This document shows, one piece after another, positions 1-36,848 of a DNA stretch of 64,000 nt. Numbering within the stretch: position 1 is the first letter of the stretch; each line of letters opens with the position of its first letter. The stretch is from Escherichia coli (GTDB taxonomy: Bacteria > Pseudomonadota > Gammaproteobacteria > Enterobacterales > Enterobacteriaceae). The translations under genes were made by a program, and so were the position numbers. Location: assembly GCF_003334405.1 (NCBI RefSeq), contig NZ_QOWM01000009.1. The stretch is one strand, 5' to 3'. The notes beneath the pieces are model-generated. The model saw nothing but the letters and a program-made list of their open reading frames with translations, was not told the DNA's origin and searched no databases.

Positions 1-296
1 GGCATTTTCCAGCCGGGGCCGAGGCTCCCCACCGGCGCGGGCGTTTTTGTCCGGTAACTGCTGTAGGTGCGGGAGAGGATGAACGGCAGCGGGCCGGGCA
101 GGGCGATGTCGGTTTCACCGGGAAGGACCTTTGCACCGAGCAGGGGATTGACCGGATGGCCGGACGTCACTCCGCCGGGGCACACCGAACAGGCCACGCC
201 GGTGGGGGCACCAATACGTACCCCGGCTGAACCCTGAACAATGCTACCGCCATACTGCGTCATGTCACCCTGACGCGCCGCCGGTTTTCCGCTCAT
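1..296 (-). CDS. rhsB: Rhs-family polymorphic toxin, N-terminal ~98 codons only (gene continues beyond window start)
   Basis: Reverse-complement reading from ATG at 294-296 gives MSGKPAARQGDMTQYGGSIVQGSAGVRIGAPTGV..., the conserved Rhs N-terminus; open to window edge; absent from ORF track because it has no in-window stop. Symbol from adjacency to nikR as in K-12. Confidence 0.75.
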   Translation of the reverse strand, partial: MSGKPAARQGDMTQYGGSIVQGSAGVRIGAPTGVACSVCPGGVTSGHPVNPLLGAKVLPGETDIALPGPLPFILSRTYSSYRTKTPAPVGSLGPGWKM

Positions 297-498
297 CGTA
301 AAATCCTTTTCTATTATTTTAATGACAATATCTTCATACGAAAAAGCGAAGAAAAACTTGTGGTCACAATGAATTGAAGATTTTTAGGAATATATTTAGA
401 ACGTTACAAAAGAGAAGGTTCGGATAGGGTATTTAGAGAGGAATCAGGTGTGCTAGTGGCCCTTTGTTGATCGTTCACCAAAGGACCCAATAATAGAC

Positions 499-3302
<2,804 letters not shown>

Positions 3303-35673: not shown

Positions 35674-36848
35674 TTTGTGTGGTCCATAATATTTTTCATG
35701 GGAGGATAAATTGAGCCAGATGGAATGGCCCAGGGAGTGATTTTGCTTTCACCTACTAATATTCCCTTAGCTATTCGTGATTGCATGTTAGTAAAAACTT
35801 TATGATATGGTTCGTTTTCGATTAATACTAAATTTTCGAAATCATTAGTACCACCATCATCTAGAGATAGTTTATGGTGAACATTATAATTTAGAGGAAC
35901 ATTGCCCTTTCTCATTCTTAAAAGGTCTTCGGCGTTGAATCTTCCAGATGCTTCGGAGGTTTTTGCAAGTTTGATAAGAAAATTTTTTCTTACAGTTTTA
36001 TTAAACTCCTTTCGTAAGTTAGCTAAGTCTTTTGAAGGTCTCTTAATGTATATTATTTCTATTATGTCTATACCATCAAGAAGTTTTTGTTGACCTCTAA
36101 GTTTGCCTAAGTAACTATTTATTTCTGTATATGTATCAACATTAGAACGCTTTGTTAAAAGAATAGATGCTGTTGCTATCGCTATGCCCGCTGTTTTTTC
36201 ATTTAGTATTTGATCATAGCCTTTTATTGCATCTCCACCCAGTTTTTCCGCAGTATCTCTGAATCCTTCAATGTTCCCATTGTATACGCCACCAGCAGCA
36301 AGTAGCCTGCCAATAGCTTTGCTGTTTAACGTTTTGAAACGATTATTTGTTTGGTTTTTTGAATTTGGTAAAAACAAACGGTTATAATTTTCAGGGAGTG
36401 CCAAATAGCTGAACTCGGTATTTGCGATAAGATGTTGACAGAGGATAAATTCATAACTAATAGTTATTGTTTCTGTATCCAGTTGGTTTTCAATGATCTG
36501 GTGATGAATAGCCGATAAAAAAGCGCCTCTTAGTTGTATATAATAATACTTTTCCAATCTACCAAATCTATTTATTCGATAGAAGTCAAATCCCATAAAT
36601 AATTGTTCATTATTGTTAATGGAATTAATAAATAATGGAGTGCTTTTATCAATTAATTTACAAAATGTTATACCATGGAACTGTGAACCAAGCCCCGTAT
36701 TATTAATATTATTTAAGAGTGAGAATGTAAATATTTCATCCTCATGCCCGCTCTGCCAACGATTACCTGTAGACTCAGAAGTCCCACAACCTGCGGAGAT
36801 GCTTCCTTGTTGTTCTCCCGTTACTGTCAGGTAAACAATATTACTCAT
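35670..36848 (-). CDS. yhhZ: Hcp-domain protein fused to C-terminal HNH-type nuclease (polymorphic toxin, T6SS-effector-like)
   Basis: 392 aa; N-terminus MSNIVYLTVTGEQQGSISAG resembles Hcp; C-terminus NYNVHHKLSLDDGGTNDFENLVLIENEPYHK has an HNH-like His-Asn-His arrangement; strongly AT-rich. Confidence 0.75.
   Translation of the reverse strand: MSNIVYLTVTGEQQGSISAGCGTSESTGNRWQSGHEDEIFTFSLLNNINNTGLGSQFHGITFCKLIDKSTPLFINSINNNEQLFMGFDFYRINRFGRLEKYYYIQLRGAFLSAIHHQIIENQLDTETITISYEFILCQHLIANTEFSYLALPENYNRLFLPNSKNQTNNRFKTLNSKAIGRLLAAGGVYNGNIEGFRDTAEKLGGDAIKGYDQILNEKTAGIAIATASILLTKRSNVDTYTEINSYLGKLRGQQKLLDGIDIIEIIYIKRPSKDLANLRKEFNKTVRKNFLIKLAKTSEASGRFNAEDLLRMRKGNVPLNYNVHHKLSLDDGGTNDFENLVLIENEPYHKVFTNMQSRIAKGILVGESKITPWAIPSGSIYPPMKNIMDHTK

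Follow-up and report, generated by a model that had tools for sequence, protein, structure and literature searches.

The question raised by this locus is which gene runs off the edge of the window (the whole stretch of Escherichia coli DNA that was analysed, 64,000 nucleotides) beside nikR, whether an intact gene lies beyond that edge, and from where such a gene might be transcribed. With a probability of about 93%, bases 1–296 are where a full-length, K-12-type rhsB begins; rhsB is the main gene of the RhsB element. The location of rhsB beside nikR is an already-known feature of E. coli K-12, and the gene is an ordinary one. We take the K-12 RhsB element to comprise rhsB (b3482), yhhH and yhhI/ISEc1, and this element was reportedly described by Hill and co-workers between 1984 and 1995. 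The observations concern sequence identity, domain matches, motifs, the gene order of relatives and the distribution of the locus in the population. The features at the window edge are as follows.

1..296, minus strand: 5′ end of rhsB, codons 1–98 plus 2 bases, recognised from its translation, the RHS_core match and its identity to K-12 rhsB

304..308, minus strand: Shine–Dalgarno-like AAGGA, 7 nt 5′ of the ATG, read from the sequence

297..498, minus strand: single-copy leader or spacer, 202 bp, 34.7% GC, candidate rhsB regulatory region

499..900, minus strand: nikR, identified by its ORF and by the RefSeq annotation of identical sequence; the upstream same-strand neighbour, given as context outside the element

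The original prediction placed a conserved Rhs N-terminus on the minus strand, from 296 down to 1 and running off the window, in a gene adjacent to nikR. This is confirmed: the minus strand is stop-free from 296 to 3 and encodes the 98 codons of MSGKPAARQGDMTQYGGSIVQGSAGVRIGAPTGVACSVCPGGVTSGHPVNPLLGAKVLPGETDIALPGPLPFILSRTYSSYRTKTPAPVGSLGPGWKM, with two more bases, belonging to codon 99, crossing the edge, and nikR lies 202 bp away on the same strand. The encoded peptide opens MSGKPAARQGDMTQYGGSIVQ from an ATG at 296–294 and ends in GPGWKM. The 98-residue fragment matches positions 1–98 of the NCBIfam model NF041261 (RHS_core) at 206.9 bits with an E value of 4.6e-61, and Pfam DUF6531 is detected on its residues 46–97 (E 1.2e-12). 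The fragment necessarily scores below the RHS_core whole-protein cut-off (2000 bits), since it holds only 98 amino acids. Judged from the sequence, the match to an Rhs gene start is far beyond chance. The rhs fragment has a GC content of 66.2%, against 34.7% in the spacer and 52.7% in the whole window, and the alignment revealed AAGGAT 5′ of rhsA and rhsC too.

Bases 1–296 are the same as K-12 rhsB, base for base, and the sole mismatch in the first 1000 bases falls at 328, in the spacer. The same stretch also corresponds to the first 296 bp of the repeated rhs core of about 3.7 kb that is common to rhsA and rhsC, and its 98 residues are 100% identical in K-12 RhsA, RhsB and RhsC, with 93% identity to RhsD. 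Therefore, the copy is not identifiable from the peptide, and it is the nikR junction, together with the single-copy spacer, that marks it as rhsB. The first 1000 bases match, at least in part, all 5426 complete E. coli genomes, and at least 80% of their length is matched in 2115 genomes, where RefSeq annotates nikE, nikR and “rhsB: rhs element protein RhsB”. Additionally, the window differs from K-12 MG1655 by 4 bases per 11 kb, none of them within 1–296, and from strain FJ_Ec_21 by 6 bases per 37 kb, which indicates a K-12-like chromosome with nik and rhsB on the minus strand.

Two bases are private to the window. At position 328 it carries A, while K-12, FJ_Ec_21, NCTC9041 and EH09-18-41 carry G, and none of the 2126 spacer-bearing genomes matches the spacer at 100%, the best reaching 99.5%. 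This A represents either a private variant or an error of sequencing. Read on the rhs sense strand, it converts TACTGT to TATTGT in a –10-like hexamer located 29–34 nt before the ATG; speculatively, it could alter a –10-like element. The second private base is T at 1637, where relatives have C, and it results in the substitution A26T in NikE (nikE 906–1712, minus strand). Given these two bases, the chromosome of the window is not MG1655 itself.

The classic explanation of the name “rearrangement hot spot” is recombination between rhs repeats. The rhsA core shares 99.2% DNA identity with rhsB over 3713 nt, beginning exactly at the ATG, the rhsC core shares 96.8%, beginning one base 5′ of the ATG, and the rhsD core shares 76%. 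The 99.2% identity to rhsA over the first 3.7 kb implies that rhsB is also a substrate for homologous recombination. This bears out the earlier description of Rhs elements as recombination hotspots, and it agrees with the historical account of rhs recombination (rearrangement) cited in PMC3150448.

The spacer was detected in 2126 of the 5426 complete E. coli genomes (~39%), usually in one copy, with at least 99% identity in 2024 of them, and this count agrees with that of the genomes carrying the nikR-rhs junction (2120). In genomes without the spacer, homology to the window stops at 492–501, that is, at the nikR stop codon or a few bases beyond it. In strain N53, the nikR–yhhJ slot (L003:200–5800) instead contains genes for a GntR regulator, PTS IIA/IIB/IIC components, an FGGY kinase, an HPr-like protein and a class II aldolase. 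The homology break at the end of nikR, the agreement between the two counts and the N53 island thus indicate that the spacer belongs to the RhsB element and not to the nik operon. The nikR–yhhJ interval is a variable chromosomal slot, in which about 39% of complete E. coli genomes have the RhsB element, and the start of rhsB marks its edge, which provides useful context for the window. Moreover, since paralog similarity begins at the ATG (rhsA) or one base 5′ of it (rhsC), the leader is specific to rhsB, save for one block. The leader features that bear on transcription are the following.

384..398, minus strand: motif TAAATATATTCCTAA, common to the regions 5′ of rhsA and rhsC; candidate BglJ–RcsB activator site

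458..488, minus strand: hairpin GGGUCCUUUGG...CAAAGGGCC, just 3′ of the nikR stop, from the RNA fold of 290–510

It had been proposed that an AT-rich spacer of about 200 bp presumably holds the rhs promoter. The spacer itself was confirmed, with its 202 bp and 34.7% GC, whereas the promoter is plausible and unproven, no strong σ70 match having been found. When positions 1–1000 were scanned with the σ70 consensus, no site was returned on the rhs strand within the spacer, and a looser scan of the spacer gave 8-of-12 matches as the best candidates lying inside it, such as TTTTCG-17-TAAAAT, which ends 19 nt before the ATG. The lone 9-of-12 candidate of the looser scan has its –35 inside the end of nikR and was discarded as not decisive. 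On the plus strand, a promoter-like TTGATC-16-AATAAT (9 of 12) was observed at 467–494, directed antisense into nikR; since two sites were counted per 1 kb against 0.6 expected, this antisense site is probably due to chance.

The block that the leader does share with its paralogs is TAAATATATTCCTAA, the one stretch conserved in the alignment of the otherwise dissimilar regions upstream of rhsB and of rhsA/rhsC, where it takes the form TAAATATTTTCCTAA. The distance from the motif to the ATG is 89 nt in rhsB, 101 nt in rhsA and 102 nt in rhsC, and the motif was observed once in the 64-kb window, against 0.01 occurrences expected. Within it, TATTCCTA at 392–385 on the minus strand corresponds to the RcsB half-site tatTCctA, as given by Salscheider et al. 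2014. In that study, rhsA and rhsB appear as FIMO-predicted, putative BglJ–RcsB targets, and the BglJ–RcsB core is described as wwTTCykA, resembling the RcsAB right half tatTCctA (PMC3950696). We infer that the shared motif TAAATATATTCCTAA may be the published predicted BglJ–RcsB site.

An unlikely explanation, which nevertheless deserves more weight than the other alternatives weighed below, is that the spacer holds no rhsB promoter at all, so that every rhsB transcript would come from read-through out of nikR or the nik operon. The two genes are on the same strand with only 202 bp between them, a scan for intrinsic terminators on the minus strand over 1–1000 found none after nikR, and no σ70 consensus match was obtained on the rhs strand of the spacer at the scan threshold. 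The hairpin at 458..488 was considered as a canonical intrinsic terminator and rejected, as it has no U-tract. However, a spacer that belongs to the mobile Rhs element and not to the nik operon argues against such dependence, as does the 15-bp motif, which is found at a similar distance from the ATG in rhsA and rhsC, which have unrelated upstream neighbours (yibF, on the opposite strand, and ybfA, respectively). In addition, the spacer does hold weak –10/–35 candidates, e.g., TTTTCG-17-TAAAAT, and rhsA and rhsB are reported as putative BglJ–RcsB targets in PMC3950696. The probable origin of rhsB transcripts is the leader, where a weak, normally silent promoter would depend on an activator such as BglJ–RcsB; this is the least supported step of the whole reading.

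Regarding RNA elements, the fold of the spacer region (290–510) was unexceptional (z-score –0.03), and a search of positions 1–1200 against Rfam at E ≤ 1 gave 0 matches, so an sRNA or riboswitch in the leader is unsupported. The accessible part of the Cappable-seq supplement PMC4782308 showed no start sites in the rhsB leader and no entry for “rhsB”, which carries no weight as an absence. A speculative extension, improbable as it stands, is that the leader would be a self-contained regulatory cassette moving with the element, in which the TAAATATWTTCCTAA box would put the vgrG-unlinked rhsA, rhsB and rhsC under a common envelope-stress (RcsB–BglJ) switch. If that were the case, a role other than T6SS killing might be envisaged in T6SS-less K-12-type strains, for example as a stress-triggered intracellular toxin/immunity module.

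Turning to the protein, the portion of rhsB inside the window can be divided into two segments.

156..296, minus strand: Rhs-NT, a short PAAR-like segment, codons 1–47, comprising the last PAAR repeat only, with a literal P-A-A-R at residues 5–8

3..155, minus strand: shell start and N-terminal plug (DUF6531), codons 48–98, opening PVNPLLGAKVLPGE, supported by the Pfam match (E 1.2e-12) and by structural-chain alignment

A full PAAR domain consists of three PAAR repeats, which form a cone capping VgrG. In RhsB, residues 2–29 match only positions 51–69 of the 70 in Pfam PF05488 (PAAR_motif; E 0.027) and positions 68–94 of the 94 in NCBIfam NF033420 (T6SS_PAAR_dom; 16.4 bits, cut-off 124), and they align with residues 71–98 of PDB chain 9rce_c and residues 67–93 of 4jiv_D. 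A complete PAAR domain was rejected, since the last repeat alone is matched by Pfam, NF033420, 9rce_c and 4jiv_D, and by analogy with Tse5-NT the head segment is best called PAAR-like. Downstream of it, P48 of RhsB is aligned with the first residue of chain 8cp6_B, the Tse5 shell, and the plug region aligns with residues 1–95 of the Tse5 shell (E 5e-16) and with residues 235–335 of Pseudomonas protegens RhsA. It has been described that Tse5 is cleaved between K47 and P48, its shell chain starting at P48, that the 5-kDa N-terminal piece is a PAAR-like domain required for secretion, and that the last 18 residues of this piece stay anchored in the shell via DUF6531, the N-terminal plug (PMC10684867). 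By analogy, an N-terminal processing site is predicted in RhsB at H47|P48 (bases 156/155), and Rhs-NT is predicted to be a VgrG-binding piece that would remain attached to the shell.

The anatomy beyond the edge is deduced from K-12, FJ_Ec_21, NCTC9041 and EH09-18-41, four relatives whose sequence departs from that of the window at 4 to 6 bases per 11 to 37 kb. In all four of these near-identical genomes, the frame runs on to an intact RhsB of 1411 amino acids (4236 nt), with 0 to 3 amino acid differences, and the full-length K-12 protein reaches 2643.8 bits against RHS_core (cut-off 2000). The RhsB of the relatives contains five stretches matching TIGR01643 YD_repeat_2x (E 1.4e-40), located off the window and expected by inference in the window genome, as well as Rhs_assc_core on residues 1170–1247. 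Also off the window, DPIG-x18-DPLG at 1221–1246 fits the DPxG-x18-DPxG aspartyl autoprotease motif, and PISDIDPLGL at 1238–1247 fits the PxxxxDPxGL core/tip boundary, both motifs as defined in PMC10684867 and PMC3150448. Homology to rhsA and rhsC stops at L001:6583 in the K-12 relative, around core residue 1238, and a unique tip lies beyond. Of the PDB structures, the one closest to the whole RhsB is that of the T6SS effector Tse5 (E 3.1e-127); next come P. protegens RhsA (1.4e-85) and structures of a Salmonella bongori protein, Tse15 and Tre23.

These relatives also show that the start at the window edge is that of an Rhs polymorphic-toxin gene, as had been predicted, since each of the four has YD repeats and a variable tip, followed by an immunity-type gene. 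An early stop in the frame, or a missing YD-repeat core, was looked for in the same genomes and neither was found, the product having 1411 residues and scoring 2643.8 bits against RHS_core. It is very improbable that the 296 bases are, in this chromosome, a remnant, i.e., an rhs pseudogene (truncated, frameshifted or interrupted by an IS) or an orphaned N-terminal fragment. The window does stop after 98 codons, rhs loci do hold fragments, such as the 82-nt rhs-start remnant (ylbI) in the K-12 rhsD locus, and IS1 was encountered in two strains, at the nikR-rhsB junction of the first and within the tip region of the second. However, the 4236-nt rhsB is uninterrupted, between the same neighbours, in four of the four closest genomes, which show 4–6 differences from the window in 11–37 kb and a single one in the first 1000 bases, and the fragment itself is free of defects and keeps both the Shine–Dalgarno sequence and the ATG.

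Returning to rhsB as a full-length gene, its C-terminal tip of 164 amino acids corresponds, in the relatives, to Pfam DUF4329 (E 1.3e-39), and it carries the E...HTH...S..D signature (TEKVSAYHTHG...FSGKD) seen in Tox-JAB-2. The end of rhsB is overlapped by yhhH, whose product is Imm-NTF2-2 (PF15631; E 3.4e-26). Comparison with known Rhs-CT families, which had been suggested as a check, thus led to DUF4329/Tox-JAB-2 for the tip and to an Imm-NTF2-2 gene, yhhH, behind it, both in the relatives. Tox-JAB-2 and Imm-NTF2-2 were listed as a pair by Zhang et al. 2012, who predicted that Tox-JAB-2 acts as a nuclease rather than a peptidase (PMC3482391). When the RhsB tip was compared by sequence with proteins of solved structure, only chance matches to internalin C (E ~0.5) were returned. 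The PADLOC defence models gave 0 matches to RhsB and YhhH, leaving a catalogued anti-phage system unsupported. A genome announcement was the only paper found to name both yhhH and rhsB, and no experiments on RhsB-CT toxicity or YhhH protection were found. The tip-plus-yhhH block is at least 99% conserved in 2642 genomes. The least credible alternative is that recombination within the shared 3.7 kb has given this start a tip and an immunity gene of the RhsA or RhsC type, as the identity of the 98 residues among RhsA, RhsB and RhsC would permit and as the annotation of one same-junction genome as “RhsA”, of some junction genomes only as “RHS element core protein”, and a displaced RhsA-type tip end with a yibA fragment 3′ of yhhH might suggest, but the DUF4329 tip with yhhH is present in four of the four nearest relatives and the conservation of the block just given also speaks against it.

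In the relatives, the RhsB-type element is ordered on the minus strand as AT-rich leader, rhsB, yhhH, yibA fragment and ISEc1, and this accessory block of ~6.7 kb fills the nikR–yhhJ slot. In the region 3′ of yhhH (L001:5255–5653 in the K-12 relative), ~32 nt from the end of an rhsA-type tip and ~350 nt from the start of yibA were found, with 97% identity to the rhsA locus, and ISEc1 (yhhI) cuts this block off. The block looks like a tip/immunity module of older date that has been displaced, as is typical of rhs loci. RefSeq names it as a “lyase” or “HEAT repeat” pseudogene. At a coverage of at least 80%, the tip-plus-yhhH block was found in 2684 genomes, compared with the 2120 that have the nikR-rhs junction, and some genomes have it under the stand-alone annotation “DUF4329 domain-containing protein”, together with a “YbbC/YhhH family protein”. 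The excess of 2684 over 2120 and the stand-alone annotations indicate that the tip/yhhH module also occurs elsewhere or as an orphan.

Taken by analogy with the solved effectors, RhsB is most likely a T6SS-style Rhs polymorphic toxin with a T6SS-type effector mechanism, in which the shell, both cleavages, VgrG docking and the toxin/immunity function are predicted from the homology to Tse5 and to further Rhs effectors of solved structure. The 47-residue PAAR-like head would dock RhsB on the VgrG spike, and residues 48 to ~1247 would form the YD-repeat shell, closed by the DUF6531 plug at one end and by the aspartyl-autoprotease plug at the other. This shell would enclose the tip until delivery. 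The autoprotease would cut after DPLGL (L1247), so that the 164-residue Tox-JAB-2/DUF4329 toxin would be freed in the target cell, and YhhH, as an NTF2-fold immunity protein, would neutralise the toxin in the producer.

K-12-type strains are not known to have a T6SS apparatus, although they retain several Rhs toxin genes that are intact and encode PAAR-like heads, and the export of RhsB and a competitive role for it in this lineage are therefore doubtful. Between yhhJ and nikR, no vgrG, eagR or tss genes were found in the four relatives, and the only T6SS-type gene in the first 37 kb of the window is yhhZ, an Hcp fusion, with yrhA beside it.

35670–36848, minus strand: yhhZ, matching the Hcp/TssD model at 118 bits (cut-off 58.9) and Pfam T6SS_HCP (E 2.5e-11)

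35179–35673, minus strand: yrhA, adjoining yhhZ on its downstream side

The C-terminus of YhhZ has a weak HNH-like match (E 0.013). The earlier suggestion that rhs and yhhZ/yrhA represent two polymorphic-toxin loci bracketing the first ~37 kb is upheld by the Hcp and HNH-like matches of yhhZ and by the presence of yrhA. With yhhZ/yrhA (35179–36848), there is a second T6SS-style toxin/immunity pair that is an orphan, as its locus has no other T6SS genes.

As annotation, the assignment is of small value, because rhsB is a textbook K-12 feature that RefSeq annotates in about 2100 complete genomes. It also identifies one arm of the 3.7-kb rhsA/rhsB repeat, which is able to mediate large duplications or deletions.

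Compared with the RhsB element of K-12, the window has the same bases 1–296, the same nikR neighbour, the same spacer bar base 328 and, past the edge, the same gene order in its relatives, and it differs by its private bases at 328 (A for G) and 1637 (NikE A26T). RhsB resembles Tse5 of Pseudomonas aeruginosa (PA2684; 8cp6) in having a 47-residue N-terminal piece before a PVNP...G.K motif, a DUF6531 plug, a YD shell and an aspartyl autoprotease, although the autoprotease motif is spaced DPxG-x18-DPxG in RhsB and DPXGX19DPXG in Tse5 (PMC10684867). Further differences are found at the N-terminal cleavage site, where Tse5 has Lys47 and RhsB has His47, and in the tip, which is a pore-forming toxin in Tse5 and DUF4329 in RhsB. 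Moreover, Tse5 is encoded beside its own vgrG in a strain with an active T6SS, whereas rhsB is without vgrG within the locus examined. Among the K-12 paralogs, RhsD has a related tip and a neighbour, ybbC, that is a paralog of yhhH. On the other hand, RhsB differs from RhsA, RhsC and RhsD in chromosomal site, upstream leader, tip and immunity gene, RhsA being followed by yibA (HEAT repeats) and RhsC by ybfB. Finally, the DUF4329 tip, with its E, H[ST]H, S and D signature, and YhhH, as Imm-NTF2-2, correspond to the known Tox-JAB-2/Imm-NTF2-2 pair.
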